Shown: one piece after another, positions 80 to 26,135 of the stretch
How the letters are laid out: every line of letters starts with the position of its first letter
How positions within the stretch are numbered: the stretch's first letter is position 1
Origin: an uncultured Chloroflexia bacterium
Lineage (GTDB): Bacteria; Chloroflexota; Limnocylindria; Limnocylindrales; CSP1-4
Assembly (NCBI GenBank): GCA_963713975.1
Contig: OY970218.1
Coordinates: 3,520,001 to 3,584,000 of the forward strand
Reading direction: 5' to 3'
DNA: 64,000 nucleotides
The notes under the pieces: model-generated
What the model saw: the letters and a program-made list of their open reading frames with translations, nothing else
What the model was told of the DNA's origin: nothing
The model's database searches: none
Program-made: the position numbers and the translations under genes

Positions 80-390
80 GGCCGGAAGTGTAGCGAGGCG
101 GCCGTGCTGCGGATAGGGGGCAGAAGGGGTCCGTTCGGGGTGTGATCGTGTCCGTTGAGGCAGGTCGGGTCTGCCCGTTCGTCCCGGATCCAGCCGAACC
201 CGGACGACGGCCAGACCGCAGTGCACGATCGCCGCCAGTTGCCCGGCGCTACGAGGGGCTGGGACTTTAGTCCGCCGCGGCGCGTCCATACGGATGAGTG
301 CGCCGGGCGCGCCGAGGATCGAAGATGGGTCGGTGCCGTCCCGCACCATGCCGGTGCTCGTGGTGCGACCGCAACCGACTGAGCCTGCCG

Positions 391-3240
391 ATGACCCCAT
401 CCAAGCCGCCGATCGCCGACCGACGCCTGCGAGGCCGAGACGCCACGCGGCCGCCCCGCGCGGCGAGGCGAGCAGGAGACCTCCAGGACCCCCGTGACGA
501 GCTCACCCTCGATGGCGTCGAGTCGGTGGCCGAGATCGGCTCGTACTCGCTCGACATCGTCGGCGACCGGTGGACGAGCTCACGAGGGCTCGATGGGATC
601 CTCGGCATCGACAGGAGATTCGAGCGCTCATTCGCGGCTTGGGCATCCCTCGTGCATGCGGCGGACCGGGACGCGATGGTCGAGTATTTCGCGAGTGACG
701 TGCTCGGGAAGGGACGGCCGTTCGATCGTGAGTACCGGGTCGTCCGTCATGACACCGGCGAGACCCGCTGGGTCCACGGGCGCGGAACGCTCACCTTCGG
801 TCACGGTGGGCAACCCGTAAGGATGCTGGGCACGATCGCCGACGTGACAGAGCGTCACGCGCTGCTGACCAGGAACCACAGGCTTGCCGAGGCGGTCGCC
901 CACACGGCGGAGGCCATCCTCGTGACCAGCCCGACGGGCGAGGTCGAGTTCTCGAACCCGGCCTTCGACCGCCTCGGCGTGGTCGCGCCCGACGAAACCC
1001 TCCAGGACGCGCTCGGCCGCATCACCCATGACCTGCCGCCCGATGTGCTGCAGGACCTGACGGAGGCCCTGTCCACTGGACGCCCGTGGACCGGACTGGT
1101 CGGCTTTCGCGACACCGACGGTGCGGACAGGGTCACGGATATGTCCATCGCGCCGATCCTTGGTGCCGACGGCGTTCCACTGGGCCATATCATCATCGGG
1201 CGTGACATCACGGAGGAGGTCGATGCGCGGCGCGCGCTCGAGTCCTCGGAAGCGCGGCTGCGGAACGTGCTCGACGCGATTCTCGAGGGCGTCACCTTCC
1301 AGACGGCGATCCGGGACGATACCGGCCGGATCGTGGACTTCCGGATCGACTATGCCAACGCGCGCATCGGCAGCGTGTCCCGGGTCCCAGCCGGGGACCA
1401 GGTGGCCCGTGGGCTCCTCGAGCTGTTTCCCGCCCACCGCACCAACGGCCTGTTCGACGCCTACGTGGACGTCGTAGAGACCGGGATCCCGTTCGAATCA
1501 GACGCCTTCCACTACCGCGACCCGCATGCGGCGGGCGGGCCGCTGGACCAGGTGGTCGAGCACCGGGCCTCCAGGATGGGCGATGGCTACGTGCTGTCGG
1601 TCCGCGACATCTCCGAGCACCACCGCTCACGTGTCGAGATGGGCCGCCTGGCCACTGCGATCGAGCAGACGTCCGATGCGGTGGTCATCACGGACGCGAC
1701 CGGCACCATTGAATACGTGAATCCGGCATTCGAGCAGGTGAGCGGGTACACCCGCGACGAGGTCATCGGCCAGAACCCGCGGATCCTCAAGAGCGGCGTG
1801 CAGAGCGCCGCGTTCTATGCCGCCATGTGGGCGACGCTGGCGGGCGGCACCTCCTTCGTCGCGGACCTGACGAACCGGCGAAAGGACGGCAGCCTGTTCG
1901 AGGAGGAGGCCGTCATCTCGCCGATCCGTGACGAGTCGGGCGCAATCACGAGCTACGTCGCGGTCAAGCGTGACGTGACCCGCGAGCGCTCCATGGAGGC
2001 AAGACAGGCGCGTATGGCTCGCGAGCGCAGCCTGATCGCCGGGATGATCGCGGACCTGGTGATGCTGCCGACGCCGGCGGCGACCGCCGAGGCGATCTGC
2101 CGCAAGATCGTGACCGCGACGGGCCTCGCAAGCGCCAGCCTCTCGTACTTCAGCGCCGAGGGGCACGCGATCCAGCTGGCGTTCGTGCGAGCCGACGGGG
2201 GTCGGGTGCCGCTGCGCCGCATCCCCGCCCAACGGAGCCGACAGCTTTCGGAGCGGGCGGGAGAAGGACCGTGGGTGGAGGCCTGGGTCCCGCGTGCCTC
2301 GCATCCCTACGACAAGCTGCACTCGGAGATGGGCACCGTGGCCCTCGCCTTCGGCCCGATCCGCCACGGGACCAGGCTGATCGGCCATCTGACCGTCGCG
2401 TCGTCCAGGGTGGACGCCGTCGCGAGCCTGACAGAGGTCCTGCCCGGCCTGCTGGAGTTCGCGATGGCCAGCGGCGCCCTGGTTGGACCCGGCATCGAGT
2501 CGCTCCTCAGGGTCGACCTCCTGCGCTCGCGCATCCGCAAGGTGCTCAGGCAGTCGGCCTTCCAGCCGGTCTTCCAGCCAGTCGTCGACCTCGTGACGGG
2601 AATGCGCGTCGGGTACGAGGCCCTCTCCCGGTTCTCCGATGGGACTGCTCCCGATCTCGTCTTTGCAGACGCCCGGACCGCGGGCCTCGAGGCAGAGCTG
2701 GAGCTGGCGACGATGAGCGCGGCGATCGAGGCCGCCCGGCTGCTGCCGCGCGACGCGTGGCTCAGCCTCAACGTCTCACCGGCGCTGCTTGTGGGGAGCC
2801 GGAGGCTTGCCGCCGTGCTGCGGAAGGCAGACCGACCCATCGTGCTCGAAGTGACCGAGCACGTCGCTGTGGAGGACTACGCGATGCTCCGCGCCGCCGT
2901 CGGGCGGCTCCGGCCACCGGTGCGGGTAGCGGTCGATGACGCGGGCGCCGGAGTGGCCAACTTCGGCCACATCGTGGAGCTTCGGCCGGCGTTCGTGAAG
3001 CCCGACGTGGGGCTCGTGCGCGGGATCGATCAGGACCTGACGCGTCAGGCCCTGATCATGGGGCTCCTCCACTTCGCGAGCGAGTCGGCCAGCCAGACGA
3101 TCGCCGAGGGCGTGGAGACGGAAGCCGAGCTCGCGACGCTACGGCAGCTTGGCGTGCCCTTCGCCCAGGGGTATCTCCTCGCGCGTCCGGCACCCGCACA
3201 GACGTGGAGTCCGAAGGCGCGCCGCCTGCCTGGAGCATGA
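391..3240 (+). CDS. Multi-PAS/GAF-EAL c-di-GMP phosphodiesterase (no GGDEF domain)
   Basis: Several PAS/PAC motifs (RWVHGRG...GTIADVTE; YVNPAFEQVSGY...VKRDVT). The C-terminal EAL domain has GYEALSRF, SLNVS, LEVTE, DDAGAG, EGVET and QGY. Start moved from 298 to ATG 391 (uncertain). Confidence 0.88.
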   Translation: MTPSKPPIADRRLRGRDATRPPRAARRAGDLQDPRDELTLDGVESVAEIGSYSLDIVGDRWTSSRGLDGILGIDRRFERSFAAWASLVHAADRDAMVEYFASDVLGKGRPFDREYRVVRHDTGETRWVHGRGTLTFGHGGQPVRMLGTIADVTERHALLTRNHRLAEAVAHTAEAILVTSPTGEVEFSNPAFDRLGVVAPDETLQDALGRITHDLPPDVLQDLTEALSTGRPWTGLVGFRDTDGADRVTDMSIAPILGADGVPLGHIIIGRDITEEVDARRALESSEARLRNVLDAILEGVTFQTAIRDDTGRIVDFRIDYANARIGSVSRVPAGDQVARGLLELFPAHRTNGLFDAYVDVVETGIPFESDAFHYRDPHAAGGPLDQVVEHRASRMGDGYVLSVRDISEHHRSRVEMGRLATAIEQTSDAVVITDATGTIEYVNPAFEQVSGYTRDEVIGQNPRILKSGVQSAAFYAAMWATLAGGTSFVADLTNRRKDGSLFEEEAVISPIRDESGAITSYVAVKRDVTRERSMEARQARMARERSLIAGMIADLVMLPTPAATAEAICRKIVTATGLASASLSYFSAEGHAIQLAFVRADGGRVPLRRIPAQRSRQLSERAGEGPWVEAWVPRASHPYDKLHSEMGTVALAFGPIRHGTRLIGHLTVASSRVDAVASLTEVLPGLLEFAMASGALVGPGIESLLRVDLLRSRIRKVLRQSAFQPVFQPVVDLVTGMRVGYEALSRFSDGTAPDLVFADARTAGLEAELELATMSAAIEAARLLPRDAWLSLNVSPALLVGSRRLAAVLRKADRPIVLEVTEHVAVEDYAMLRAAVGRLRPPVRVAVDDAGAGVANFGHIVELRPAFVKPDVGLVRGIDQDLTRQALIMGLLHFASESASQTIAEGVETEAELATLRQLGVPFAQGYLLARPAPAQTWSPKARRLPGA

Positions 3241-3393
3241 CGTCGGGTCGGCGCGCGACGCGGGCCCGTCGAGTCCGGGGTTAAGCCCACGTTGACTGGC
3301 CGGGAAGGTCCACTGCCTAGGCTTGGGGGGCGTCCCCGGGGTATGCACGAGCATCGCGTCCAGCCCGGGTCGACGCTAAGGGAGAGTCGATCG

Positions 3394-4041
3394 ATGGTCG
3401 CGGAACCCGTTCCCTTCAAGGCCCGGATCCCGGTGGTGGTCGTCGCCGCTGACCCCCTGTCCCGGGCCGGGATCGTCAGCCAGCTGCGCAAGGTCCAGGG
3501 CTTCGGCGTGGCCGGAGACGGCGAGCTGCCCGAGGACGTCGTGGGTCTCGTGGTCGGCGAAGAGCTGGATGCCGAGGTCCTGGGGTCGATGCGGGCGCTG
3601 CGTGGGCGGGGCGTTCGCCGGGTTGTGCTCCTGGTCTCACGCGTCGACGACCGGAGCCTGATGGCCGCGGCCGAGGCCGGCGTGACCGGCGTGCTGCGCC
3701 GAAGCGAGGCAACCGCGGGCAATCTTGCCGCAGCGCTGCGCTCGGCTGCCGCCGGTGAGGGCTCCCTGCCACCCGACCTGCTGGGTCGGCTGCTGCGCCA
3801 GGTGGGCCAGCTCCAACGCCAGGTGCTCTCGCCGCGCGGCCTGACGTTCTCGGGCCTGACGGAGCGCGAGGCCGCGGTCGTGCGGCTGCTCGCCGACGGG
3901 CTGGACACCAGTGAGATCGCCCACCAGTTGTTCTACTCCGAGCGGACCGTGAAGAACATCATCCACGACATCACGTCGCGGCTCGAGCTCCGCAACCGGA
4001 CCCACGCCGTCGCCTACGCGATCCGCGAGGGGCTGATCTGA
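3394..4041 (+). CDS. LuxR/NarL-family HTH regulator with degenerate receiver domain (CIS-associated)
   Basis: C-terminal LTEREAAVVRLLADGLDTSEIAHQLFYSERTVKNIIHDITSRLELRNRTHAVAYA. The receiver lacks the acidic pocket (VVAAD; no clear phospho-Asp). RBS AAGGGAG precedes ATG 3394. Confidence 0.88.
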   Translation: MVAEPVPFKARIPVVVVAADPLSRAGIVSQLRKVQGFGVAGDGELPEDVVGLVVGEELDAEVLGSMRALRGRGVRRVVLLVSRVDDRSLMAAAEAGVTGVLRRSEATAGNLAAALRSAAAGEGSLPPDLLGRLLRQVGQLQRQVLSPRGLTFSGLTEREAAVVRLLADGLDTSEIAHQLFYSERTVKNIIHDITSRLELRNRTHAVAYAIREGLI

Positions 4042-4114: not shown

Positions 4115-4816
4115 TCAGCCTCCGCTCAGCGCGACGAACAGCCGCCCGCGGCGTGCCGCATCCGTCCGCAACGTCACCATCACCCGCACCTGGAGCCATT
4201 CGCCGGGTCCTGGGTCCAGCCCCTGATCGAGCGGCAGCGCCAGGGGCCAGCCGGCCCCCGCCTGCACCCACCGTGGCTGCCCGGTGGCGGCATCGCCGGC
4301 CGTGGTCCCCCACCGATCCACGGGCACGCCCGACGCGTCGATCCGGACGAGGCTGCACTCGATGGTCGAGACGTCCACCGCGAACGGCTCGCTGCCCACC
4401 GCGACCAGGCTCGCCCGGCCCGGATCGGCCACCAGCTCCAGCGCCGCGACGGGACACTCGGTCGCGCTGTCCACGAGCGCACGCAGGTGGTCGACCAGCA
4501 CGCCCCACGGACCACCCGGCGTGGCGTTGGAGCCCATCGATGCGACGACCTCGCCCTCGTCACCGATCGCGATGGTCTCGGTGGCCCCGTCGCGGGGTGT
4601 CTCGAGCCAGGGGCCGTCGCCCCGGCCGCACGCCGTGGCCTCGCCCCGGACGGCCTCCATGACGTCCTCGGGCAGGCTGCCCGCGAAGGAGCCGATCCGC
4701 GCCCCGGCCACGGTCCGGCGCGCCCGGAAGGAGCCGTCGGCGCGCAGCTCGAGGAGCTCGTCGTCCGCGGGTGGCCGGCCCCCGGAGCGCGAGTAGGTCA
4801 GAAGGATCGCGCTCAC
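4115..4816 (-). CDS. Hypothetical protein, putative immunity/partner of effector A
   Basis: Its GTG overlaps the effector A stop (GTGA). It is visibly paralogous to 9503-10165 (TYxR...ELLEL..DGS...IGxFxGxL...GPW..LV...AGxGW). Confidence 0.75.
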   Translation of the reverse strand: MSAILLTYSRSGGRPPADDELLELRADGSFRARRTVAGARIGSFAGSLPEDVMEAVRGEATACGRGDGPWLETPRDGATETIAIGDEGEVVASMGSNATPGGPWGVLVDHLRALVDSATECPVAALELVADPGRASLVAVGSEPFAVDVSTIECSLVRIDASGVPVDRWGTTAGDAATGQPRWVQAGAGWPLALPLDQGLDPGPGEWLQVRVMVTLRTDAARRGRLFVALSGG

Positions 4817-7107
4817 GCTGATCCCTTCACGATCCGCCAGGCACCCGGCCGGTTCCGCCCGACCAGCTCCGCGAAATGCCGGACATGTCGCTCCGCGATC
4901 GGGTGGTCATGGGGGTTCACGGGTGCGTTGAAGCTCTGCATCTCACCCATCAGGGACCGGTTGCTGTAGCCGAATGGCGCGGTGGCCGCCGTCTCGGGCG
5001 CGTTGCGCCCCGGGATGCGGGCCGCGATGTCGTCCTCGATGTGGGCAGCGGGATCGTTCACCACCACGGGCCCACTGGGGCCATTGTCCTCGCGCTGGAG
5101 GTTACCGGCATTGGCGCGCTCGTAGGCGATGCCGACCCTCTGGGCGAACGCGCCCTGCGCCAGCGAGTACTTGGTGGCGACCACGGCCTGGGCCTTGATC
5201 CCCCGCTGGTTGGCCGGGCTGCTGGTGACGGCCGTCCGGATCTCGGCGGCGATCGTGTCGGGGGCGATGGGGGCACCGCTCGCATCGGTGGGGGCGTCGG
5301 TGGCACCCGTGAAGGGCTGCTCGCCGGTGATGATCGTGTACTGCTCGGGTCCCGTGTTGTACTCGTCCTGGAGGCCCAGGAGGTGGCCGAACTCGTGTGG
5401 CGCGAGCGCCGCGTCCGTGTCGCCCGTGTGGTACTCCCCGGCGTTCGAGCGGCCCGGCGTCCCGCCCGGCGGCGTCACGATGACGCGGACGGTCGCGTCG
5501 GCCGGCGACCCGCTGCCGACCACGAACCGGATCGGCAGCTCTGTGCCCGGGTGATCGTCATCGACCACCTTGAAGGTGTTCCAGGCGTTCATCATCTGCT
5601 GGCGCCAGGTCGCCACCATCGGGTGGCCGGGCGCGCCGGTGAACCGGATGTTGACCGAGATCTCGAGCCGGTCGGGGTGCAGCCTCCAGGTGAACCGCGT
5701 GGGGCCCCCGTACTGGGAGCCCTCCACGCGCTCGTTCGACTCGAACTCCTCCCGGCCGACCGTCACCGGACCGGCCACGGCGTCGAGGGCGGTCCAGGTT
5801 GCCGCATTGGCGACCCCGGTGATCGGCAGGGGTGGCGTGCGCGAGCCCTGGAACTCGCGGACGGCGCTCCGGGTCGGCTGGTCGAACCGACCGTTCGCCG
5901 TTGGCCGGGTCGGGACCTGCGCCGCGTCCATCGTCAGCAGCTTCTGCTGGAGCTCTTCCACCGCGGCGCCCCGGTTGTTGAGGCGCACGGTTGGGTGGAT
6001 CGTGCCGCCGGTCGGCACGCCGCGTGCCTCCGCCGGCACGGGACCCTCGATGACGGCACGCCCGTGTCGGAAGACCCTCGGGGCCAGCTGGTCCAGCTTG
6101 AGCCAGGTCTCGAGCGTGGCGATCCCGTTCGCCGCGAGGGGCGGGTGGGCGGCCTGGAACGCCGACACGGCTGCCGTGGTCTCGGGCCCGAACATCGCGG
6201 TGATCCGCAACGGCGGCGCGGCCCCCGTGGCGTTGAGCGCCTGCTGCATCACGCCGATCTCAGGGTTGGGCCCGTCCCCCTCGGCGTAGACCGCCCGGAG
6301 CAGCCCCAGGGCCTGGTCGAGGTCGTCGCCCGAGAGCTCATCGCGGACCTCGTCCACGAGGACCTTGCCCGTCAGATCGTGGTACTCCCGGGCGACCTCC
6401 ATGATCTCGTAGGGACTCCGTCCGGTGAGGGCGTTGATCAGCTGGCTCTCGTCGGTCCCGAGGTCCCGCATCGCCTCGTCCGCCTGGCGGGCCACATCCC
6501 GGGCGCGAACCGCCCGTTGCTCCAGCGCTTCCTCGGCATTGGCCACCGCGTCGTCCGCGACAGCGGTGGCCATCAGCTGGCGCGCTCGTGCCAGCTCGGA
6601 CGCGGTCAGCTCGTCCTCGAGGTCCGCATCGAGGCTCCCGTTCATGGCCATTGGCTGGTACGCCGCGACGATCGCGTCGAGGTCGGCCCGCCGTCGACCC
6701 GACAGCGCGCCGTAGATCGCCTCCTCGTCGGTCCCCCAGCGGTCCATCGCCGTGAGCAGCTGGCGGGCGACGCGGCCCGCCTGGTCGGCCGACATCGCGC
6801 GCTGGATGGTCGGGCGGGCCGGTCCCGCGCCTGTGGCGCCGCGGTCGGGAGCCGTGCGCCGCACGAGCCCGTCCACGGCCGCGTTCCCGGCCGTTCGCTG
6901 CAGCCCCATCACCATGCGGGGCAGCACACCGGGCGGCAGCGCACCGCCCGGCCCCAGGATCTCCGAAGACGCGGGCCCGAAGGTGGCTCCGTGAACGCCG
7001 TCACCGTCGGCGGGAACCAGCACGTCCGCGGCCGGGCGTGCCGGGCTCGGCCGGGGGCCGCGGAGGGCATCCGGAGAAGCCTGCCGGGGAACTGTGGAGT
7101 CCGACAT
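4813..7107 (-). CDS. Putative CIS effector A: LQRxAGN leader + 2 annexin repeats + 2 peptidoglycan-binding domains + HExxH zinc metalloprotease
   Basis: Leader LQRTAGNAAV. Annexin repeats AMDRWGTDEEAI...EDEL and AMRDLGTDESQL...RDELSGD. PGBD-like QQAL...FGPETTAAVSAFQ...ANGIA..ETW and LQQKL...GRFDQPTRSAVREFQ...ITGVA..ATW. HEFGHLLGLQDEY at 5359-5397 and a candidate Met-turn SLMG. Confidence 0.82.
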   Translation of the reverse strand: MSDSTVPRQASPDALRGPRPSPARPAADVLVPADGDGVHGATFGPASSEILGPGGALPPGVLPRMVMGLQRTAGNAAVDGLVRRTAPDRGATGAGPARPTIQRAMSADQAGRVARQLLTAMDRWGTDEEAIYGALSGRRRADLDAIVAAYQPMAMNGSLDADLEDELTASELARARQLMATAVADDAVANAEEALEQRAVRARDVARQADEAMRDLGTDESQLINALTGRSPYEIMEVAREYHDLTGKVLVDEVRDELSGDDLDQALGLLRAVYAEGDGPNPEIGVMQQALNATGAAPPLRITAMFGPETTAAVSAFQAAHPPLAANGIATLETWLKLDQLAPRVFRHGRAVIEGPVPAEARGVPTGGTIHPTVRLNNRGAAVEELQQKLLTMDAAQVPTRPTANGRFDQPTRSAVREFQGSRTPPLPITGVANAATWTALDAVAGPVTVGREEFESNERVEGSQYGGPTRFTWRLHPDRLEISVNIRFTGAPGHPMVATWRQQMMNAWNTFKVVDDDHPGTELPIRFVVGSGSPADATVRVIVTPPGGTPGRSNAGEYHTGDTDAALAPHEFGHLLGLQDEYNTGPEQYTIITGEQPFTGATDAPTDASGAPIAPDTIAAEIRTAVTSSPANQRGIKAQAVVATKYSLAQGAFAQRVGIAYERANAGNLQREDNGPSGPVVVNDPAAHIEDDIAARIPGRNAPETAATAPFGYSNRSLMGEMQSFNAPVNPHDHPIAERHVRHFAELVGRNRPGAWRIVKGSA

Positions 7108-7155: not shown

Positions 7156-7794
7156 TCACATCTGCAGCTCTTCTTCTTCCTCCTCACCCGATTCCTGGCG
7201 CTGGACGGACGTCATGACCTCGTCGGCCGTCTGCTCGGCCGCGTGCTCGAAGCGATCCGACGGGCTCGACACCCGGATGCCGCCCGCCGCGTCGCTGCCG
7301 TCCACGGGGCCCTGGGACTGCTGGACGACATGGGCCAGCTCGTGAGCCAGCGTGCGCTGGCCAGTCGGGGTGGCCGGGTTGAACTGGCCGCCCCGGAAGA
7401 CCACATCGTTGCCGACGGTGTAGGCATTGGCACCGACGGCCTCGGCGGACTTCGACGCCCGGTCATCGGTATGGACGCGCACTCCCCCGAAGCTGGCGCC
7501 AAACGCGGACTCCATGTTCGTCCGGAGGCCCTCGTCTAGGGGCGACCCACCCCCGGAACCGATGACATCGTGCACCGGGGAGCGATCCTCCTTGTCACCG
7601 GCCAGCATCTGGACGACGCCCTGGTTCCCGGCCGTCCGCTGGAGGTGCATCACGGACGCCGCGTCCATGGCCGGCGAGCGGACGAGCGCGGGCGGGGCGC
7701 CGACCGCCCCGGCTGCCCGGGACTCGGGCGTCGGGCTCCCGGTTGTCCGGTGTGACGCCCGGCGTGCGGGCGGGTCCAGCTCGAAGTCATGCAT
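7156..7794 (-). CDS. Stand-alone DUF4157 (eCIS core domain) protein
   Basis: GSPLDEGLRTNMESAFGASFGGVRVHTD...ANAYTVGNDVVF...LAHELAHVVQQ is the DUF4157 signature. AGGAGG RBS precedes ATG 7794 (the ORF track over-extends it to 8994). It ends VQRQESGEEEEEELQM with no toxin domain. Confidence 0.9.
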   Translation of the reverse strand: MHDFELDPPARRASHRTTGSPTPESRAAGAVGAPPALVRSPAMDAASVMHLQRTAGNQGVVQMLAGDKEDRSPVHDVIGSGGGSPLDEGLRTNMESAFGASFGGVRVHTDDRASKSAEAVGANAYTVGNDVVFRGGQFNPATPTGQRTLAHELAHVVQQSQGPVDGSDAAGGIRVSSPSDRFEHAAEQTADEVMTSVQRQESGEEEEEELQM

Positions 7795-7876
7795 CTGCCT
7801 GTCCTCCTGTGGCAACCGACAGCATCCGCCACCGACCGGGCCATCGCAATGGCGTCGAGCTGGACCGCCCGGAAGT

Positions 7877-7892
7877 CTGCCCGTATGGGCAG
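7877..7892. promoter_or_regulatory. Palindromic operator CTGCCC-N4-GGGCAG in the divergent effector promoter
   Basis: CTGCCC GTAT GGGCAG, centred 42.5 nt upstream of ATG 7927, which follows TAGCAT (7914-7919). The same palindrome occurs at 13108-13123. Confidence 0.6.
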
Positions 7893-7926
7893 CCCGGCAG
7901 CCTTGCCGACGCGTAGCATCCGGGCC

Positions 7927-9486
7927 ATGCGGACACATGCCACGAGGTCCCAGCCCGCTCCGCAGCGCCCCGCCGGCCACACGACTCCGGCCCGGCTCCA
8001 GGACACAGACGTCCGGAACGTCGCACCGGACCGGATCACCCCGGGCGTCGTGGCCCAGCTGCAGACGGCGGCTGGCAACCGTGCGGTCGGCCCCGTCGTC
8101 CAGCGTGCCATCAGCTGGGACCATGCGGTCAGCCTCGCCCGCCGGCTCGAGGACGCGATGTCGGGGCTCGGCACAGACGAGGAGGCGATCTACGGAGCCC
8201 TGGCGGGCCGCACCGCCGACGACATGGTGAACGTGCGCGACGCTTACCGCCAGATGTACTCCGAGAGCCTTGACGCGGCCATCCGGGACGAGCTGACCGA
8301 AGACGAGTACGAGCGAGTCCGCGCCACCCTGGAGGCACCGGCCGAGGCGGCAATGACCGCGGCCGAGCGCCGGACGGCCACGGCGGATGCGGCCGCCGCG
8401 ATCGCCGGCCAGCTGCACGATGCGATGGAAGGCCTCGGCACGGAGGAGGACCAGATCTTCAACGCCCTCACGGGCCGGACCCCGTCCGAGATCGAGGCGA
8501 TCAGCCGGGCCTATACCGCCCGCTTCGGGGCCCTGCTCGCCGACGACCTGCGCGACGATCTCAGCGGCGACGATCTCGTCCGGGCCCTGCGCCTGATCGG
8601 GCTCGAGGACACGGGCTCGTTCGAGAACGCGCTCCAGCAGCGCATGACCGAGGGGGCGACGACCGTCGTCCGGGGCCGCTTCACCTACACCCTCACCGAG
8701 GACTCGCTGGACGTGGACGTCGCGGCGAAGTTCGCGCCGTCCGAGGGCGTTGAGGTTCCCCTCGACACGTGGAACTCGCAGATCGCGGACACGTGGAACC
8801 GGTTCTGGATCAGCGAGCCCGGGGGCCGCTCGATCGACCTCCAGATGCACCTGCGGGACGATCCCGGCGAGACACGGCGGATCCGGGTCGTGGAGAACGC
8901 GCGGCCCAACGTGTACGGATATCCCGACCGCGCCAACGCCGGGATGTGGTACCCGGTCATGCCGGCGAGCACGGCCCCGCACGAGTTCGGGCACCTGGTC
9001 GGCCTGCCCGACGAGTACCAGCGGACCGCCGCCGACTTCGAGGCCATCACCGGCGCGGGCAGGAGCGGTCCCGAGAACGAGTCAGGCAAGACCGAGGCCG
9101 AGATCGCGACGGAGCTCCACGCGGCCCTGACGGTCGCCGACGCGGCGCAGCGCGCACCGGGCGCGACGACCATCCTGCGCGCCTGCGGCCTGATCTCCGA
9201 CGGGCGTCCCCAGCAGGGCGACTTCGCCCAGGCGGTGATGACCGCCTACAACGACGCCTATGGTGACGAGACCGCCGACCAGCTGCTGCCGGTGCTTCAG
9301 CACCTCCCGGACGGGACGAACTGGACCCTGATGACCGTGTTCTCGTTTGCCAGTGGGACGATCATGGGCAATCCCGAGGAGGTCGGGGTCGCCGAACACG
9401 AGCACCCGGTGGAACCACGCCACCTCTCGGAGTTCAAGTCCATCGTCAGGAACCGCTGGCCGGACCTCGACTGGGCGGTCGAATGA
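7927..9486 (+). CDS. Putative CIS effector B: LQxAAGN leader + 2 annexin repeats + HExxH zinc metalloprotease
   Basis: Leader LQTAAGNRAV. AMSGLGTDEEAI and AMEGLGTEEDQI each have D/E exactly 38 residues after GxGT. HEFGHLVGLPDEY at 8980-9018, candidate Met-turn TIMG. The C-terminus aligns with effector A (HP...RH...F...V). Likely leaderless start at ATG 7927. Confidence 0.82.
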   Translation: MRTHATRSQPAPQRPAGHTTPARLQDTDVRNVAPDRITPGVVAQLQTAAGNRAVGPVVQRAISWDHAVSLARRLEDAMSGLGTDEEAIYGALAGRTADDMVNVRDAYRQMYSESLDAAIRDELTEDEYERVRATLEAPAEAAMTAAERRTATADAAAAIAGQLHDAMEGLGTEEDQIFNALTGRTPSEIEAISRAYTARFGALLADDLRDDLSGDDLVRALRLIGLEDTGSFENALQQRMTEGATTVVRGRFTYTLTEDSLDVDVAAKFAPSEGVEVPLDTWNSQIADTWNRFWISEPGGRSIDLQMHLRDDPGETRRIRVVENARPNVYGYPDRANAGMWYPVMPASTAPHEFGHLVGLPDEYQRTAADFEAITGAGRSGPENESGKTEAEIATELHAALTVADAAQRAPGATTILRACGLISDGRPQQGDFAQAVMTAYNDAYGDETADQLLPVLQHLPDGTNWTLMTVFSFASGTIMGNPEEVGVAEHEHPVEPRHLSEFKSIVRNRWPDLDWAVE

Positions 9487-9502
9487 ACGGGAGCCCGGAC
9501 CG

Positions 9503-10165
9503 ATGACCCTGGTGACGTATCGCCGCCTGGCGGATGCCCCACCTCCCGAACGCGAGCTCCTGGAGCTGGATCCGGATGGCAGCGCCCGCGTGTGGCGCTC
9601 CAATGGGCCGGCGATAGGACGTTTCGGTGGCACGCTCGACGATGTCGCCGCGCTCCGGGCCGCAGTCGCCTCAGCGGCAGCGGCCGATCCGCCGGCGGTC
9701 GGGTCGCTCCCGTCGGGCGCCGCCGTGGAGGTCGTGGACGCCGCCGGACGGACGGCCCGCCTCGAGGCGCGGGCGCCCGTCGAGGGCCCGTGGGCGCCGC
9801 TCGTGGAGCGCTGCCGCCGCGTGCTCGATGCCCAGGTCGAAGCACCGCTCGCGGCGATCGCGGGCGTGCTGGACGTGGATGGCGGCCTCCGGCTCGAGCA
9901 CCGGGGGACTGCGGTGCTGCCGGTGGAGCTCGGGGCGCTCGCCGTCGACTTCACGCTCTGGCGGGACGGTGCGGAGGCCGCACGCGGCCGGATCACGGGT
10001 AGCCCGCTCGGGCATGCCGAGGCTGGTCCAGGCTGGGCCACGACTATCCCCTCGCCCGAGCCGGACCTCGCCGGGAGCGGAACCCTGGTCGTGGTCGCGT
10101 CCTTCGTCGCGGACGATGCCGGGATCGACGTGCCCGTGGCGATCACGGTCGTCCGGGAGCCTTGA
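9503..10165 (+). CDS. Hypothetical protein, putative immunity/partner of effector B
   Basis: Starts 16 nt after the effector B stop with a GGGAG RBS. Paralog of 4115-4816. Confidence 0.75.
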   Translation: MTLVTYRRLADAPPPERELLELDPDGSARVWRSNGPAIGRFGGTLDDVAALRAAVASAAAADPPAVGSLPSGAAVEVVDAAGRTARLEARAPVEGPWAPLVERCRRVLDAQVEAPLAAIAGVLDVDGGLRLEHRGTAVLPVELGALAVDFTLWRDGAEAARGRITGSPLGHAEAGPGWATTIPSPEPDLAGSGTLVVVASFVADDAGIDVPVAITVVREP

Positions 10166-10217: not shown

Positions 10218-12326
10218 TCAGCCGCCGGCAAGCTCCAGGTACTCGCCGAACTCCGCCTCCACCATCAGCCGACCGAGCTTGCGGTACTCGCGCTCGGTGG
10301 CCCGGACCAGGTCCGTCATCCCCACCGGGCGCCCGTCGGCCGCGGCGAGGTAGGCGGCGGTCACGCAGACGTTGCGGATGTTCCCGCCAGAGATCTTGAA
10401 CCGGCCGGCCAGGAAGTCGATGTCGATGTCGCCGGCGACCGGCAGCTCCGGCGAGAGGTTGCGGGCCCACAGGCGGAGCCGGTGCTCCACCTCGGGCATC
10501 GGGAAGTCCACGATGGCATCCAGCCGCCGGACGAATGCCTCGTCCACGTTGGAGCGCAGATTCGTGGTCAGGATGGCCAGGCCGTCGAAGCGCTCCATCC
10601 GCTGGAGCAGGTAGGCGACCTCGACGTTGGCGTAGCGGTCACGGGCGTCCTTGACCTCGGACCGCTTGCCGAACAGGGCGTCCGCCTCGTCGAACAGGAG
10701 GATGCCGTTGACCCGGTCCGCCTCGGTGAAGATGCGGTCCAGGTTCTTCTCGGTCTCGCCGATGTACTTGTCCACCACGGTGGAGAGGTCGATGACGTAG
10801 ACGTCGAAGCCGAGGTCGGCGGCCAGGACCTCGGCCGACATCGTCTTGCCGGTGCCTGAGTCGCCGGCGAAGAGCGCCGTGATGCCGAGCCCTCGCGCGC
10901 CCTTGGTGCCCATCCGCCACTCGCCGACCACACGCTCCCGGTGGCGCGCCCGGGCGAGCAGCTCGCGCAGCTGCTGCTCGACGACCGCGGGCAGCACGAG
11001 GTCCTCCCAGCCGACGGACGGCACGATCCGCCGGGCGAGGCGCTCCAGTCCGGCCGTGTTCTGGGCACGGGCCCCGGCCGAGACGTCGTCCACGGTCATC
11101 GGCCGGCCGGCGGCGAGCGCGGTCCGGCGGGCGGCCCGGGCGGCCCGGTCGATCTGCTCGGGGGCAAGGCGGAACGCGATGGTGGCCACGGCCGGGTCGA
11201 AGCCGTCAGGGGCGTCACCATTGAGGCTGCGGATCCACAGGTCGTGGCGGGCCTCGACGTCGGGCACAGGGACCTCGAGGACGAGCGGCGGCTCGCGGGA
11301 CCACACGGGATCCCAGGCACGGCCGCCCACCAGGATCACGGGGCCGGGGAGCTCGGCGAACGCCCGGACCGCGGCCGCGCCGCGCTCTCCGAGCGCCTCC
11401 ACGGGACCCACCACCAGGCCCGCGCCGCGGAGGCGCGCCTCGCGCGAGGAGGCGGCGGCGATCGCCGCCGGGTCGGCCGCGGCAGCGAGGCGGGTGAGGT
11501 CAAGGGCGATGGCGGTCCGCCCCCAGCGAGCCAGGGCCGTGCAGGCGAGCGACCGCCCCGAGGCGCCCGCCCGCTCCTCGAGGTAGACGAGCTCGAGGCC
11601 GGCCTCGAGGCCCCGGACCACGGCGTCCACCTCCGGCCCCTCGACGGCGATCGTCGTGGTCAGCAGGGAGCTCACGACGGGGTCCGGTGCGTCATCACCC
11701 AGGAGGTGGGCCGTCACCCGGTCCGGAACCCGAAGCGGCCTCGTGAGCGAGGGGCGGTCGGGCTCCTCGACCAGCAGCAGGTGGCCGACGAGGAGCGGCG
11801 CGAGCGGCCCCAGTCGGTCCCGGCCGAGGACCCCGCCGGATCCGAGGCCACAGAGCTCCAGGGCCAGGCCGACGCTCGCGCGTCGGCGGGAGACGTCATC
11901 GTGGAGGTAGCCGTAGAGCCGCTCGAAGCGCGGGTCCAGGTCCGGGGCAAGGGCGACCAGGAGCAGTTCCACGTCGGCGGGCACCAGCCCGAAGGTGCGG
12001 GAGAGCTCGAGCAGCCGGATCCGCGTCCCGTCCGCCTCCGCGGAGGCAGCGTGGGCATCGAGGTCGGCCAGCAGGCCGGCGGCGGCGCCCTCCGCCACGG
12101 ACGGCACGAGCGGGCCCGGCGTGCCGGCCAGGAGCGCATCCACCTGGTGTTCCGAGATGTAGAGGCCGCGGAACTGGTCCTCCGGATCCGGGTCGGCCGC
12201 ACGCCGGCGGTCCACGGCGGCGCGGACGCGGGCCTCGAGGAGACGGAGACGGGCCAGGAGATAGGCAACCGAGGGATCCTCGGCACGCGCGACCAGCGTG
12301 CCGTCCCGCGCGCGGACCTCGTTCAC
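10218..12326 (-). CDS. eCIS AAA+ ATPase (Afp15/Pvc15-like)
   Basis: Walker A GDSGTGKT, Walker B LLFDEADALFGKRSEVKD.RDRYAN, KYIGETEKNL, and the N-terminal APDLDPRFERLYGYLHDD motif typical of this family. Confidence 0.93.
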   Translation of the reverse strand: MNEVRARDGTLVARAEDPSVAYLLARLRLLEARVRAAVDRRRAADPDPEDQFRGLYISEHQVDALLAGTPGPLVPSVAEGAAAGLLADLDAHAASAEADGTRIRLLELSRTFGLVPADVELLLVALAPDLDPRFERLYGYLHDDVSRRRASVGLALELCGLGSGGVLGRDRLGPLAPLLVGHLLLVEEPDRPSLTRPLRVPDRVTAHLLGDDAPDPVVSSLLTTTIAVEGPEVDAVVRGLEAGLELVYLEERAGASGRSLACTALARWGRTAIALDLTRLAAAADPAAIAAASSREARLRGAGLVVGPVEALGERGAAAVRAFAELPGPVILVGGRAWDPVWSREPPLVLEVPVPDVEARHDLWIRSLNGDAPDGFDPAVATIAFRLAPEQIDRAARAARRTALAAGRPMTVDDVSAGARAQNTAGLERLARRIVPSVGWEDLVLPAVVEQQLRELLARARHRERVVGEWRMGTKGARGLGITALFAGDSGTGKTMSAEVLAADLGFDVYVIDLSTVVDKYIGETEKNLDRIFTEADRVNGILLFDEADALFGKRSEVKDARDRYANVEVAYLLQRMERFDGLAILTTNLRSNVDEAFVRRLDAIVDFPMPEVEHRLRLWARNLSPELPVAGDIDIDFLAGRFKISGGNIRNVCVTAAYLAAADGRPVGMTDLVRATEREYRKLGRLMVEAEFGEYLELAGG

Positions 12327-13224: not shown

Positions 13225-14736
13225 ATGCCGAACTATCTGTCACCCGGCGTCTACGTCGAGGAGGTGGAAGCCGGGTCGCGTCCCATCGAGGGCGTCGGCA
13301 CGGCTGTCGCCGCATTCGTCGGACTCGCCGCCCGCGGACCCGCGAACACCCCCACGCTGGTCACGAACTGGAACCAGTTCACGGCCACCTTCGGGGAGTT
13401 CGTGGAGAGCTCCTACCTCGCACACGCGGTGTACGGCTACTTCCTCAACGGAGGGGGGGCCGCCTACGTCGTACGGGTTGGCGCCGACGGCGTCATGCCC
13501 ACCGCGTCGGCCGAGCTGCCCAGCGCCACCGAGAAGGGCAAGCCGGCATTCCGGGTGGCCGCCCTGGAGGCGGGTGCCGAGGGCAATGACCTGAGCGTCG
13601 AGGTGGAGGCCCCGGGCGACGGCGCCGAGGGCAACTTCAAGCTCGTCGTCAAGCAGGGCGGCAAGCCGGTCGAGACGTTCGACAACGTCACCACCGGCAG
13701 GGGCAAGACCAACGTCGCGACCGTGGTCAAGTCGCAGTCGAAAACCATCACGATCGAGGAGGTTGGCGCCCTGACCGCCCCGTCGACCGGATCCGTCTCC
13801 CTTGCGGGCGGCGGCGCCGCGGTGCCGGCCCGGGTAACGCCCACGGATTATGTGGGCAGCTCGGCCGATCGCACCGGCTTCGCCGGTCTCGAGGCCGTGG
13901 ACGAGGTCACCATGCTGTCCGTGCCGGACCTCATGGCCGTCTACGAGCAGGGCATCATCGACCTCGAGGGCCTCCAGGCCGTCCAGCTTGCGATGCTCGC
14001 CCACTGCGAGCTGATGGGCGATCGCGTCGCCATCCTGGACTCGCCGCCCGGGCTCAACGCCCAGCAGGTGAAGGAGTGGCGGGTCGACAAGGCGGGCTAC
14101 GACAGCAAGTACGCGACCCTCTACTGGCCGTGGATCAAGGTCTTCGACCCCCTCGCCGGCCAGGCCCGGTTCGTGCCCCCGTCCGGCCACGTCGCCGGGA
14201 TCTGGGCTCGTAACGACGACACCCGCGGCGTCCACAAGGCGCCGGCCAACGAGGTGGTCCGGGGCGCCATCAGCCTGGCGCTGAACCTGACCAAGGCCGA
14301 GCACGACCAGCTGAACCCCAACGGGATCAACTGCATCCGCGCGTTCCCCGGTCGCGGCATCCGGATCTGGGGAGCCCGCACCATCTCGAGCGATCCGTCG
14401 TGGCGCTACCTGAACGTCCGGCGGCTGTTCAACTACGTCGAGGAGTCGATCTTCGAGGGCACCCAGTGGGTGGTCTTCGAGCCCAACGACGTCCGGCTCT
14501 GGGGCCGGGTCAAGCGGACGATCAACTCGTTCCTGCTCCGGGTATGGCGCGATGGCGCCCTGTTCGGGGCGACACCGGACCAGGCGTTCTTCGTCAAGTG
14601 CGACGAGGAGAACAACCCGCCGGAGGTCCGCGACGCGGGCCAGCTGATCGTCGATATCGGGATTGCGCCGGTCAAGCCGGCCGAGTTCGTCGTGTTCCGG
14701 ATCGCTCAGTTCTCCGGATCCCCGGACGCCGAGTAG
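13225..14736 (+). CDS. Contractile tail sheath protein
   Basis: MPNYLSPGVYVEEV...IEGVGTAVAAFVG; PPSGHVAGIWARND..RGVHKAPAN; WRYLNVRRL; GIAPVKPAEFVVFRI. Confidence 0.96.
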   Translation: MPNYLSPGVYVEEVEAGSRPIEGVGTAVAAFVGLAARGPANTPTLVTNWNQFTATFGEFVESSYLAHAVYGYFLNGGGAAYVVRVGADGVMPTASAELPSATEKGKPAFRVAALEAGAEGNDLSVEVEAPGDGAEGNFKLVVKQGGKPVETFDNVTTGRGKTNVATVVKSQSKTITIEEVGALTAPSTGSVSLAGGGAAVPARVTPTDYVGSSADRTGFAGLEAVDEVTMLSVPDLMAVYEQGIIDLEGLQAVQLAMLAHCELMGDRVAILDSPPGLNAQQVKEWRVDKAGYDSKYATLYWPWIKVFDPLAGQARFVPPSGHVAGIWARNDDTRGVHKAPANEVVRGAISLALNLTKAEHDQLNPNGINCIRAFPGRGIRIWGARTISSDPSWRYLNVRRLFNYVEESIFEGTQWVVFEPNDVRLWGRVKRTINSFLLRVWRDGALFGATPDQAFFVKCDEENNPPEVRDAGQLIVDIGIAPVKPAEFVVFRIAQFSGSPDAE

Positions 14737-14774
14737 CCACCAACGCCTGACCAGGACACGTCACGGAGGCACGA

Positions 14775-15209
14775 ATGCCGACCACTGATCCCCTTCTGCA
14801 AGGGAACGTACTGCTCGACATCGACGGCGTGGGCGTCGTCGCGAACTTCAGCTCGGTCTCGGGTGTCTCGAGCGAGGTGGAGATCGTCGACAACCCGTAC
14901 GTCACAGAACAGGGCAAGGTCTACATCGGGAAGCTGCCAGGCAAGCCCAAGACCCCCACCGTCACCCTCAAGCGCGGCCTCACCGGGGCAACCGAGCTCT
15001 GGGAGTGGCACACCGCGGTGATGCAGGGGACGCCGGACCGCCGCAACGGCTCGGTCATCCTCATGAACACCGTCGGCGAGGAGGTCCTCCGCTACAACTT
15101 CACGAACGCGATGGTCTCCAAGATCAGCCTGTCCGAGGGCGGCGCCACGACCAGCGGCGTCCAGATCGAAGAGGCCACGCTGTCCTGTGAAACGCTGATC
15201 AAGGGCTAG
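14775..15209 (+). CDS. Tail tube protein (T4 gp19-like, Afp1/5)
   Basis: FSSVSG...KLPGK...VTLKRG...WEW...RRNGSVIL...YNFTNA. Located directly after the sheath gene. Confidence 0.9.
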   Translation: MPTTDPLLQGNVLLDIDGVGVVANFSSVSGVSSEVEIVDNPYVTEQGKVYIGKLPGKPKTPTVTLKRGLTGATELWEWHTAVMQGTPDRRNGSVILMNTVGEEVLRYNFTNAMVSKISLSEGGATTSGVQIEEATLSCETLIKG

Positions 15210-15264
15210 CCCCTTGACCGCCGCGACCCTGCCCGAGATCCCGGTCGAGCGCGGGAGCACGAAC

Positions 15265-15648
15265 GTGTCCGAGGACCTCCGCACCGAATATGCGTTCGTG
15301 CTCCCCCGCGGCTACGTGGACGGGGCCGGGACGGTCCACCGCGACGGCGTCATGCGCCTCGCGACGGCCCGCGACGAGATCATCCCCCAGCGCGATCCAC
15401 GGGTCCGGGAGAACGAGGCCTACCTCACCGTCCTCCTGCTCTCGCGCGTGATCACCAGGCTGGGCACGCTGGCGCAGGTCCATACCGGCGTGATCGAGGG
15501 GCTGTTCGCCTCCGACCTCGCCTTTCTCCAGGATCTCTACCGGCGGATCAACCAGGAGGGACACACGCAGGCCTCGGTGACGTGTCCCGCCTGCAATCAC
15601 GCCTTCACCGTCGACGTGGCGGGTGAGCAGCGCCTGGGGGAATCGTGA
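15265..15648 (+). CDS. Putative tail assembly chaperone (G/E-like)
   Basis: LRTEYAFVLPRGYVD.AGTVHRDGVMRLATARDEI...DLAFLQDLYRRIN...CPAC, a CIS protein conserved after the tube gene. Start is GTG 15265 (GGGAG RBS) or TTG 15214. It ends LGES on a slippery GGGGGAA. Confidence 0.8.
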   Translation: MSEDLRTEYAFVLPRGYVDGAGTVHRDGVMRLATARDEIIPQRDPRVRENEAYLTVLLLSRVITRLGTLAQVHTGVIEGLFASDLAFLQDLYRRINQEGHTQASVTCPACNHAFTVDVAGEQRLGES

Positions 15649-15691
15649 CGTACGCGACCGACCGACTGTTCGAAGAGGTCGCGTACGTCGC
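15636..15691 (+). other. Candidate programmed -1 ribosomal frameshift signal (slippery GGGGGAA + downstream hairpin)
   Basis: G GGG GAA at 15636-15642. Perfect 13-bp stem GACGTACGCGACC (15647-15659) / GGTCGCGTACGTC (15677-15689). The -1 frame is open into 15645-15803. Confidence 0.7.
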
Positions 15692-15803
15692 CTATCACTT
15701 CCACTGGCCGATGGACACGATCCTCGACCTCGAGCACCCCCTGCGGCTGCAATTCGTCGAAGAGATCGGCCGGATCAACAAGCGCCTGTCCGAGGAGGAG
15801 TGA
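15645..15803 (+). CDS. DUF6760-like small protein / C-terminal extension of the frameshifted chaperone (P2 gpE'-like)
   Basis: Absent from the ORF track (52 aa): MTYATDRLFEEVAYVAYHFHWPMDTILDLEHPLRLQFVEEIGRINKRLSEEE. The AxxFHWP motif resembles phage GpE-type chaperone extensions. Confidence 0.85.
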   Translation: MTYATDRLFEEVAYVAYHFHWPMDTILDLEHPLRLQFVEEIGRINKRLSEEE

Positions 15804-15808
15804 GCCCC

Positions 15809-17851: not shown

Positions 17852-17860
17852 GGAGCAGCG

Positions 17861-18346
17861 ATGGGCGATCCCGCCATCAGCGTCGCCTACAAGTGCACGA
17901 TCGACGGCCTCATCCCGCTGGGGATCTGGACCAAGATCGAGGGCCTGGGCTTCGAGTACCAGGTGACGGAGTACCGCGAGGGCGGGGTCAACGGGTACAC
18001 CCACAAGATCCTGGGACCCTGCAAGTACACGAACCTGCGCCTGAGCCGGCCCGTGGACTCCACCTCCGAGTTCCTCATGCTGTGGCTCCAGTCGCAGATG
18101 ATCGCCGTGCTGCCCATGACGATGTCGATCACGGCCTGCACGGCGAGCGGCGAGGACATCACCACCTGGAACCTGGCCGGCGTGGTGCCGGTCAAGTGGG
18201 GCGGACCCAGCCTCGACGTCATGAGCAACAACGTGGCCACGGAGACGCTCGAGATCTCCTACCAGGAGATCATCGGGCTTGGGGCCCTGGGGGCCGCCCT
18301 GACCGGCGCCCTGTCCGTCTCCGCCTCCGCGTCCGTGTCGTTCTGA
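17861..18346 (+). CDS. Second tail tube-like protein (gp19-like)
   Basis: EGLG.EY.VTEYREGGVNGY.HKILG..KYTNLRLSRP...WNL.GVVPVKWGGPSLD...VATETLEI. Confidence 0.9.
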   Translation: MGDPAISVAYKCTIDGLIPLGIWTKIEGLGFEYQVTEYREGGVNGYTHKILGPCKYTNLRLSRPVDSTSEFLMLWLQSQMIAVLPMTMSITACTASGEDITTWNLAGVVPVKWGGPSLDVMSNNVATETLEISYQEIIGLGALGAALTGALSVSASASVSF

Positions 18347-18356
18347 GGCCGCCGCA

Positions 18357-19094: not shown

Positions 19095-19103
19095 GCCACG
19101 ACG

Positions 19104-20789: not shown

Positions 20790-20801
20790 GCGGAGCGGGA
20801 G

Positions 20802-21191: not shown

Positions 21192-21201
21192 GGAGGGTGA
21201 T

Positions 21202-21600: not shown

Positions 21601-21602
21601 CC

Positions 21603-26135
<4,533 letters not shown>

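Follow-up and report, generated by a model that had tools for sequence, protein, structure and literature searches.

Bacterial annexins are, to our knowledge, functionally uncharacterised. About thirty of them, with one to five domains (1, 2, 3 or 5) and a conserved GxGTD, are described in the portions of Kodavali et al. 2014 on which we draw (PMC3894181), together with fusions to DUF4157, to Peptidase_M90 metalloproteases and to toxin domains, and with the suggestion that adjacent annexin genes interact. Contractile injection systems (CISs) form the second background to this work. Those of the Chloroflexota are assigned to lineage IId, form cytoplasmic particles and probably act in a Streptomyces-like manner, according to the parts of the describing paper used here (PMC12998442), and for the AlgoCIS system the section of the report available to us has cargo loaded by means of a disordered N-terminal sequence and an AAA+ ATPase (10.64898/2026.05.27.728243). 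Here, we describe two neighbouring genes in a 64,000-nucleotide stretch of DNA (the window) from an uncultured Chloroflexia bacterium (assembly GCA_963713975.1, contig OY970218.1, positions 3,520,001 to 3,584,000 of the forward strand). Their products, effectors A and B, are paralogues that each combine two annexin repeats with a C-terminal zinc-peptidase motif, and since they flank a complete CIS, we read them as its cargo. On balance, we consider it probable that this cargo is made up of a motif-bearing N-terminus, a self-sufficient, Ca2+-gated annexin module that docks on membranes, and a metzincin-like peptidase. Bacterial annexin-metalloprotease fusions and the enrichment of annexins in loci of extracellular CISs (eCISs) are already published; effectors A and B extend these surveys and are not a new category.

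The closest described cases are proteins of Haliangium ochraceum in which DUF4157, Peptidase_M90 or both are joined to annexin domains, and in repeat number effectors A and B are like the two-domain annexins of Gemmatimonas, Haliangium and Rhodococcus (PMC3894181, in the portions used). They differ from the proteins of that survey in several respects: their protease has the motif HExxHxxGxxD and matches no Pfam family at cut-off; their host belongs to the Chloroflexota, a phylum that is not in the list of the survey's abstract; the acidic calcium ligand, 'less conserved' in the consulted text of the survey, is present in 70/70 members of the effector B family; and the locus has, in addition, a partner gene that is conserved and the explicit setting of a CIS operon. 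The DUF4157 toxins of eCISs and Cgo1 and Cgo2 of AlgoCIS share with this locus a setting of CIS and DUF4157 neighbours, a disordered N-terminus, a variable C-terminal toxin and an AAA+ gene nearby (PMC8213781 and 10.64898/2026.05.27.728243, each in part), whereas here DUF4157 is a separate gene, being fused in three relatives at other loci (L023, L030 and L031). The literature on annexins together with CISs yielded a single on-topic paper, Geller et al. 2021, with one mention in the text covered, and papers on bacterial annexins and on DUF4157 brought up nothing closer than these surveys; Supplementary Data 9-11 of that paper (PMC8213781) and Table S1 of Kodavali et al. (PMC3894181) may list family members. 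The word 'annexin' is absent (0 occurrences) from the paper on Chloroflexota CISs (PMC12998442), from an eCIS toxin classifier paper (PMC11297309) and from the PROCIS preprint, and annexin effectors are described neither in the parts used of PMC12998442 nor in those of the Streptomyces CisA paper (PMC12237407). As far as the covered parts of the literature on Chloroflexota CISs go, we found no effector described.

Effector B (519 amino acids; 7927-9486, plus strand) is given from its public gene-call start, its frame being open from 7789, and is 100% identical to P0002 in our set of relatives. It runs from a disordered N-terminus through the motif LQTAAGNRA and two annexin repeats to a zincin domain. 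Effector A (764 amino acids; 4813-7107, minus strand) is divergently transcribed from it and has a disordered N-terminus with LQRTAGNAA, two annexin repeats, two PG_binding_1 domains and a C-terminal zincin. Between the paralogues, identity amounts to 42% for the annexin region and to 30% for the protease region.

Judged by sequence profiles and by a predicted structure, effectors A and B carry genuine annexin repeats. An earlier note, made from the letters of the window, had claimed that both repeats of effector B read GLGT, 38 residues and an acidic residue, the canonical geometry of the annexin type II Ca2+ site, and a script that located the sites bears this out. In repeat 1 (8122-8334, plus strand; residues 112-182 of the open reading frame, ORF) GLGT at residues 126-129 (nucleotide 8164) is followed by E168, and in repeat 2 (8389-8601, plus strand; ORF residues 201-271) GLGT at 215-218 (nucleotide 8431) is followed by D257, each acidic residue lying at +39, i.e. 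38 residues after the threonine. The two-repeat region falls in stop-free sequence (8134-8597, plus strand), which corresponds to residues 116-269 of effector B within an ORF spanning 7789-9486. In effector A, repeat 2 (6295-6507, minus strand; residues 201-271; repeat hidden Markov model (HMM) E 1.6e-24) has DLGT at 215-218 with the same spacing to a glutamate, and repeat 1 (6568-6783, minus strand; residues 109-180; repeat-HMM E 2.5e-27) has RWGT at 123-126 and a shifted acidic residue, the aligned glutamate standing at +40 as the result of a one-residue insertion. The earlier note was right about both, and the region it gave for these repeats, about 6300-6795, agrees with the two envelopes; the change of the first glycine to arginine was absent from it. 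The predicted calcium site of effector A repeat 1 is thus degenerate.

The Pfam Annexin profile (PF00191; cut-off 25 bits) matches two stretches in each protein, with 72.3 bits (E 3.6e-20) for effector A and 92.2 bits (E 2.2e-26) for effector B, and across the whole 3.62-Mb genome its matches are four repeats, each individually above the cut-off and all in these two proteins. A phmmer search against the chains of the PDB returned 78 distinct sequences at E<=1; the 60 listed are all annexins or annexin fusions, headed by annexin VI (1avc) at E 4e-35, and because the alignments have no gap between the GxGT loop and the acidic residue, the spacing equals that of solved eukaryotic annexins. Six-frame translation of the window contains five matches to the bare pattern G.GT-38-[DE], of which two are the effector B repeats and the other three lie at nucleotides 255 (plus strand), 29160 (minus strand) and 59512 (minus strand); the matches in effector B are, on sequence grounds, annexin sites beyond chance.

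The modelled fold agrees. An AlphaFold2 model of effector B, built with an alignment of 70 relatives (mean predicted local distance difference test score, pLDDT, 86.8, with residues 1-35 below 50), contains five helices in each repeat, at residues 64-79, 85-92, 97-111, 115-122 and 125-135 and at residues 145-168, 174-181, 186-200, 204-211 and 214-223 (pLDDT 83-97); GxGT falls in the A-B loop of each repeat, and the acidic residue at its D-E turn. A helical linker of 24 residues separates the two modelled repeats, and no further annexin-like helices were seen outside model residues 63-227. When the model was compared by VIA-align with 48,161 representative chains, it matched the annexin A2 fusion chain (6t58) with Z 16.9, a root-mean-square deviation (rmsd) of 3.4 and 164 residues, and giardins and annexins A8 and VI at Z 13-14; as a single repeat, annexin I domain 1 was matched with Z 11.0 and rmsd 1.7 over 73 residues. 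Identity to the matched annexins is 16-27%. Foldseek with the whole model returned only annexins, at a whole-chain rmsd of about 30. The Pfam scan and the predicted fold both speak for true annexin repeats, and these have the type II site geometry claimed before. In the five-helix repeat and in GxGT-38-D/E, effectors A and B are like eukaryotic annexins (A2, A4, A5, A6, A8 and XII) and alpha-giardins, to which the effector B model aligns at Z 13-17 with an rmsd of about 3.4 over about 160 residues. They differ in that each chain has two repeats instead of four or eight, and in that these repeats form part of a multidomain enzyme, no such extra domains being described for eukaryotic annexins in the covered portions of PMC3894181.

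Conservation among relatives suggests that these sites matter. The family has at least 191 relatives at E<=0.001. In an alignment of 70 full-length ones, 43-77% identical to effector B, every sequence (70/70) carries GxGTDE in repeat 1, and every one (70/70) has the acidic residue there at +39; in repeat 2, the second glycine and the threonine are kept in 70/70, the first glycine in 66/70 and the acidic residue at +39 in 70/70. From this pattern, the predicted annexin calcium sites are under selection. In effector A, RWGT with its insertion is common to the three closest orthologues only (L011, L018 and L025), and since more distant A-type proteins read GWGT (L010, L022 and L067), the site in repeat 1 is decaying in this clade.

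The number of repeats is less constant. With an HMM built from 140 aligned repeats, 121 proteins were scored (P0001 being a fragment from the window and P0002 effector B): two repeats were counted in 90 proteins, three in 14, four in 2 (P0116 and P0118), five in 7, one in 1 (a short sequence) and none in 7. One third-repeat match, in P0057, is doubtful (E 0.01), and Pfam spot checks of nine proteins gave two, three or four passing stretches, the same in kind as the HMM counts. This freedom to vary suits an explanation in which the repeats are a spacer or handling module specific to CIS cargo that binds no lipid: a helical array, easy to unfold and refold, placed between loading signal and toxin domain, which the AAA+ ATPase, the tube or the DUF4157 protein might recognise. 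Cargo is thought to be loaded unfolded, stable folds loading poorly (10.64898/2026.05.27.728243, in the section used), and long linkers are common between DUF4157 and toxin domains (PMC8213781, in the text covered). In a mere spacer, however, GxGT and the acidic ligand would not be preserved in both repeats of 70/70 relatives, and orthologues without annexin still have the N-terminal motif and the protease, features whose presence thus does not depend on the repeats. We consider this explanation improbable.

A scan of one genome per species returned 195 stretches encoding relatives, of which 70 loci were kept, with flanks of up to 10 kb fetched around each; some contigs are short. The genes at these loci were identified by tblastn with the window proteins. 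Full-length relatives occur in metagenome-assembled genomes of Chloroflexota (Chloroflexia and Limnocylindrales) and in Acidimicrobiia (Ilumatobacteraceae), and the protease domain alone extends to Actinoplanes, Agromyces, Nocardioides and Kribbella. The protease domain is encoded in 65/70 loci and annexin-coding sequence in 26/70. CIS genes lie within the fetched flanks of 18 of these 26, and the order DUF4157, B-type gene, partner, AAA+ gene, sheath recurs in nine Chloroflexota loci (L001, L003-L007, L012, L018 and L019).

These loci bear on the proposal of the earlier note that each two-repeat module is a half-core, such that A:B pairs or homodimers rebuild a four-repeat, Ca2+-dependent membrane-binding core. 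A four-repeat core in one chain is absent from both effectors, each having two repeats; such a core is the hallmark of eukaryotic annexins rather than of the repeat family, to which bacterial proteins with one to five domains are counted (PMC3894181, in the portions used). In the whole genome there are exactly four annexin repeats, split evenly between A and B, which are encoded by divergent neighbours; the pairing of an annexin-bearing A-type with a B-type gene recurs in L010, L011 and L018, and two relatives (P0116 and P0118) have four repeats in one chain. The geometry of the model is also compatible with the proposal. The aligned ranges in the targets span three to four repeats (annexin A8 91-325, Sm annexin 10-362), so that repeats 1 and 2 of effector B are predicted to superpose like two non-adjacent repeats of a eukaryotic core, and pairs or fours were proposed as the functional unit by Kodavali et al. 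2014 (PMC3894181, in the portions used). Set against this, the repeat number on the same protease takes values of 0, 1, 2, 3, 4 and 5, and a single annexin gene is present in 22/26 annexin loci, some of them on short contigs, the two annexin stretches of L017 being one ORF. The B-type gene stands alone in L001, L005 and L019; in L004, L006 and L007 the A-type protein runs from the motif to PG_binding without annexin, and its B-type neighbour keeps the pair. B-type proteins that are alone or beside an annexin-less A-type protein mean that A:B pairing is not the general solution, and the site of effector A repeat 1 is degenerate in this clade. Modelling of a B:B fragment pair (P0002 60-228, two copies, with a 70-row alignment) returned 0.00 and 0.01 as scores, the mark being 0.42, in a run without controls; it speaks neither for nor against. 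A four-repeat core formed by pairing is not required by any evidence at this locus. The pairing proposal, whether as A+B or as homodimers, has gained no support from this variable repeat number, the single-gene loci and the annexin-less A-type proteins, and we regard it as unlikely.

The context of the two genes is that of an injection system. They flank a gene for a DUF4157 (eCIS_core) protein (212 amino acids; 7156-7794, minus strand; Pfam PF13699, E 1.7e-32), which has HELAH and a motif LQRTAGNQG of its own (about 7644, minus strand) and which stands first in a minus-strand operon, followed by effector A and then smallA. Further along, and within 4 kb, come a CIS AAA+ ATPase (702 amino acids; 10218-12326, minus strand; Pfam WHD 1.9e-26 and AAA 1.1e-23) and then sheath, tube, spike, PAAR and baseplate genes. 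The structural operon (13225-23549, plus strand), as assigned by Pfam, encodes in order a sheath (Phage_sheath_1), a tube protein (Phage_T4_gp19), two ORFs of no family, a second tube protein (again Phage_T4_gp19), a LysM tube protein (CIS_tube+LysM), a VgrG-like spike (Phage_base_V/GPD), PAAR (PAAR_motif), gp25 (GPW_gp25) and Baseplate_J. Three plus-strand ORFs of the operon, at 15214-15648, 15623-17851 and 23218-24183 (144, 742 and 321 amino acids), have no Pfam or NCBIfam match, and by its position between the tube genes the 742-residue product could be a tape-measure or cargo-like protein. That A and B are HExxH protease effectors, as first suggested from their translations, agrees with the zinc-peptidase motif at the C-terminus of both and with the adjacent injection system.

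A shared N-terminal signature links the three proteins at the start of the locus. The pattern LQxxAGNxA has three matches only in the six frames of the window, namely LQRTAGNAA in effector A (6877-6903, minus strand), LQTAAGNRA in effector B (8059-8085, plus strand) and the motif of the DUF4157 protein. Among the 70 aligned relatives of effector B, G50, N51 and A53 do not vary, and conservation at Q46 and A49 is >=90%. No Sec-like stretch was found in the first 85 amino acids of either effector, the highest 15-residue Kyte-Doolittle mean being 0.99 in A and 0.61 in B. By analogy, the region around the motif may be a cargo-loading signal, perhaps a lineage-specific one.

The CIS operon is closed by a membrane protein, P0122 (651 amino acids; 24180-26135, plus strand), for which Pfam, NCBIfam and inspection of the sequence by eye give the order zinc ribbon, Pro/Glu-rich low-complexity region of about 250 residues, second zinc ribbon, a single hydrophobic helix and, on the outside, a glycan-binding discoidin domain of the NADase type (NCBIfam NADase_discoid, 50.1 bits against a cut-off of 38). 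As compared by description, its layout is like that of Streptomyces CisA, i.e. a bitopic protein with a disordered cytoplasmic part and an outer folded domain, encoded at the end of the operon (PMC12237407, in part). In contrast to the C-terminal domain of CisA, which resembles a substrate-binding domain, the outer domain of P0122 is of the discoidin type, a different fold family (same source and limit). Like the cytoplasmic CISs of Streptomyces and Chloroflexota, the system described here has an eCIS-like gene set with no recognised tail fibre in a Chloroflexota host (PMC12237407 and PMC12998442, in the parts used).

These features also bear on whether effectors A and B could be anti-eukaryotic, with an extracellular CIS injecting them into a protist or other eukaryote and the annexin part mimicking host annexins and docking the protease on the inner leaflet upon a rise in calcium, for example at the puncture wound. 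The site spacing is exactly eukaryotic, and in the text of Geller et al. 2021 covered here Annexin (PF00191) is among the eCIS domains predicted to be anti-eukaryotic since it is mostly eukaryotic (PMC8213781). That prediction of a eukaryotic target is countered by effector A, whose two peptidoglycan-binding domains argue otherwise (PG_binding_1 twice, about 5758-6240, minus strand, residues about 290-450; Pfam PF01471, 70.7 bits, E 1.1e-19; two stretches, the best at residues 379-441), and by most annexin-less relatives, which combine PG_binding with the protease. In addition, the scanned ORFs beyond the baseplate genes include no recognised tail-fibre family, Chloroflexota CISs are reported to be of the cytoplasmic type, lineage IId (PMC12998442, in part), and the conserved partner gene suggests that the producer needs protection. 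We judge an anti-eukaryotic role very unlikely, and the locus speaks against the view in the literature that an annexin domain encoded in an eCIS locus is the mark of a toxin aimed at eukaryotes.

The C-terminal domain of effectors A and B, about 280 residues long, has the motif HEFGHL(V/L)GL(P/Q)DEY, which reads HEFGHLLGLQDEY in effector A (5359-5397, minus strand; located by regular expression) and HEFGHLVGLPDEY in effector B (8980-9018, plus strand; HExxHxxGxxD). The residues H, E, H, G, D, E and Y of the motif are each kept in 70/70 relatives, and M480 of effector B (P0002 numbering), a candidate for the Met-turn residue, is conserved in them at >=90%. Sub-threshold, motif-level matches of the domain are to Peptidase_M6, M64 and M7 (M7 at E 0.077); the Asp variant of the zinc motif is presumably that of snapalysin (M7). 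By VIA-align, model residues 259-510 match metzincins, i.e. ADAMTS-5 (Z 6.3), ulilysin (6.1), mirolysin (5.9), astacin (5.6) and MMP-9 (5.3). Because these Z values are middling and the motif is HExxHxxGxxD, we call the domain metzincin-like, and from sequence and model it is a predicted metzincin-like zinc peptidase in both effectors. It is like the metzincins (ADAMTS-5, ulilysin, mirolysin, astacin and MMPs) in this motif and, with middling scores, in the predicted fold, and differs from them in a conserved C-terminal HxH...H cluster in the effector B family. In P0002 the cluster comprises residues 491-499 (about 9397-9423), H-x-H-x-V-x-x-R-H, with H491, H493, V495 and H499 present in 70/70 relatives; these residues could bind a second metal or a structural zinc.

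In the mechanism that we favour, the N-terminal motif region would direct AAA+-dependent loading of the cargo, by analogy with AlgoCIS. In the producer's cytoplasm, where calcium is low, the annexin pair would be inactive and the co-translated smallA or smallB protein would probably restrain or chaperone the protease. Firing would expel the cargo into the cell-envelope space, where ambient calcium would let the annexin pair bind anionic lipid, so that calcium would report location rather than a signalling 'rise'. The peptidase would then be placed at the membrane-wall interface, with the PG_binding domains of effector A gripping the wall, and would cut envelope proteins or peptides. An envelope target is supported by the two PG_binding_1 domains in effector A, by the annexin-less relatives made up of PG_binding and protease with a partner, and by the cytoplasmic type reported for Chloroflexota CISs (PMC12998442, in part). 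That effector A has no Sec signal despite its wall-binding domains speaks for its being cargo. A further-reaching reading takes annexin arrays to be a portable compartment sensor of CIS cargo that is silent at cytoplasmic calcium levels and, once ejected through the membrane of the producer or of a neighbour, clamps a zinc peptidase on the outer leaflet of an anionic bacterial membrane, beside the peptidoglycan held by PG_binding domains, two repeats being sufficient; we hold this to be possible but not likely. If true, it would make these proteins the smallest natural functional annexin membrane binders and would tie annexins to the regulated death of Chloroflexota cells through cytoplasmic-type CISs.

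Several points weigh against cargo with a self-sufficient annexin dock and a metzincin-like peptidase. Eukaryotic annexins act as four-repeat cores, and we know of no demonstration that an isolated two-repeat annexin binds membranes. The peptidase domain matches no peptidase family of Pfam or NCBIfam at cut-off, and its metzincin alignments, at Z 5.1-6.3 overall over 118-140 residues, are middling scores obtained from the whole 519-residue model. Five Acidimicrobiia loci with three-repeat homologues (L009 and L014-L017) have no CIS gene within the fetched flanks. A cytoplasmic partner suits an inhibitor that acts before loading, and equally a protease with a cytoplasmic target. Finally, annexin domains of eCISs are read as anti-eukaryotic by Geller et al. 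2021 in the text covered (PMC8213781). Against this background, the effector B family is of use as a compact, conserved two-repeat annexin with intact predicted calcium sites, fused to a predicted enzyme and accompanied by a candidate inhibitor. It is a tractable case for asking whether a half-core binds membranes, what a prokaryotic annexin does and how CIS cargo reaches its site of action.

The partner genes follow the effector genes closely. SmallA (233 amino acids; 4115-4816, minus strand) has a GTG start that overlaps the effector A stop by 4 nucleotides (GTGA), and smallB (221 amino acids; 9500-10165, plus strand) begins 14 nucleotides after the effector B stop. Their products are 35% identical over 127 residues (E 2e-11), and neither has a match in Pfam or NCBIfam. 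A homologue of about 220-250 amino acids adjoins the protease gene in 52/65 loci (e.g. L001:11605-12270 and L018:6221-6943) and is kept also at loci that lack annexin and whose fetched flanks contain no CIS genes. From this conserved adjacency, smallA and smallB are candidate cytoplasmic inhibitors or chaperones of their cognate effectors; because they have no signal peptides, the partner proteins are taken to act in the cytoplasm. The AlphaFold2 model of smallB (pLDDT 95.1) has two domains and no structural match by Foldseek at E<=0.001. Its beta-sandwich (115-221) aligns with the intracellular proteinase inhibitor Ipi of Bacillus subtilis (3isy) at Z 7.0, a score tied with many unrelated Ig-like folds, and the ESM Atlas neighbours of the partner at 0.86-0.89, below the 0.9 mark, include BsuPI and emfourin clusters. 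A profile search of PDB sequences with the partner family returned no inhibitor, the only matches being designed armadillo repeats, a low-complexity artefact. By sequence profile, membership of the partner in BsuPI (PF12690) or emfourin (PF20242) is not supported, 0/43 family members matching either Pfam family at E<=1. The likeness to proteinase inhibitors is a weak lead.

The wider set of loci suggests how the annexin part was acquired. Relatives without annexin mostly consist of PG_binding and protease, with a partner gene, and many keep an N-terminal LQRxxGN motif; motif-headed proteases in Agromyces, Nocardioides and Kribbella loci have no CIS genes within the fetched flanks. We infer that the ancestral unit was a motif-tagged, wall-binding peptidase with its partner, to which the annexin pair was later added as a module. 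Annexin arrays also precede other peptidases. In L003:7436-8797 (minus strand) and L021:9599-11149 (plus strand), a two-repeat array is joined to a different peptidase with an HExxH...NPDSY C-terminus and no Pfam match, and in L023:9323-11233, L030:9245-11266 and L031:9002-11233 (all plus strand), from Rhodospirillales, Pirellulaceae and Kiloniellales, DUF4157 and about three annexin repeats come before Aspzincin_M35, which is Pfam-matched in L023 and L030. The loci that combine annexin with Aspzincin-type peptidases, including those of Chloroflexota, are CIS loci, and their proteins have an N-terminal DUF4157 in some cases and not in others. Since annexin arrays precede zinc peptidases of two families, they appear to be a recurrent insert after a CIS signal or a DUF4157 part.

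The host is a soil-type member of the Chloroflexota, and the GC fraction of the window is about 0.72. Three putative regulatory genes lie around the locus. Just upstream of the effector genes, 298-3240 (plus strand) encodes a PAS-PAS-PAS-EAL protein of 980 amino acids, and 3292-4041 (plus strand) a response regulator with a helix-turn-helix of the LuxR/GerE type, as read from the translation by eye; a BTAD/AAA regulator is encoded at 26181-29177 (minus strand). All three are possible regulators of the CIS locus.

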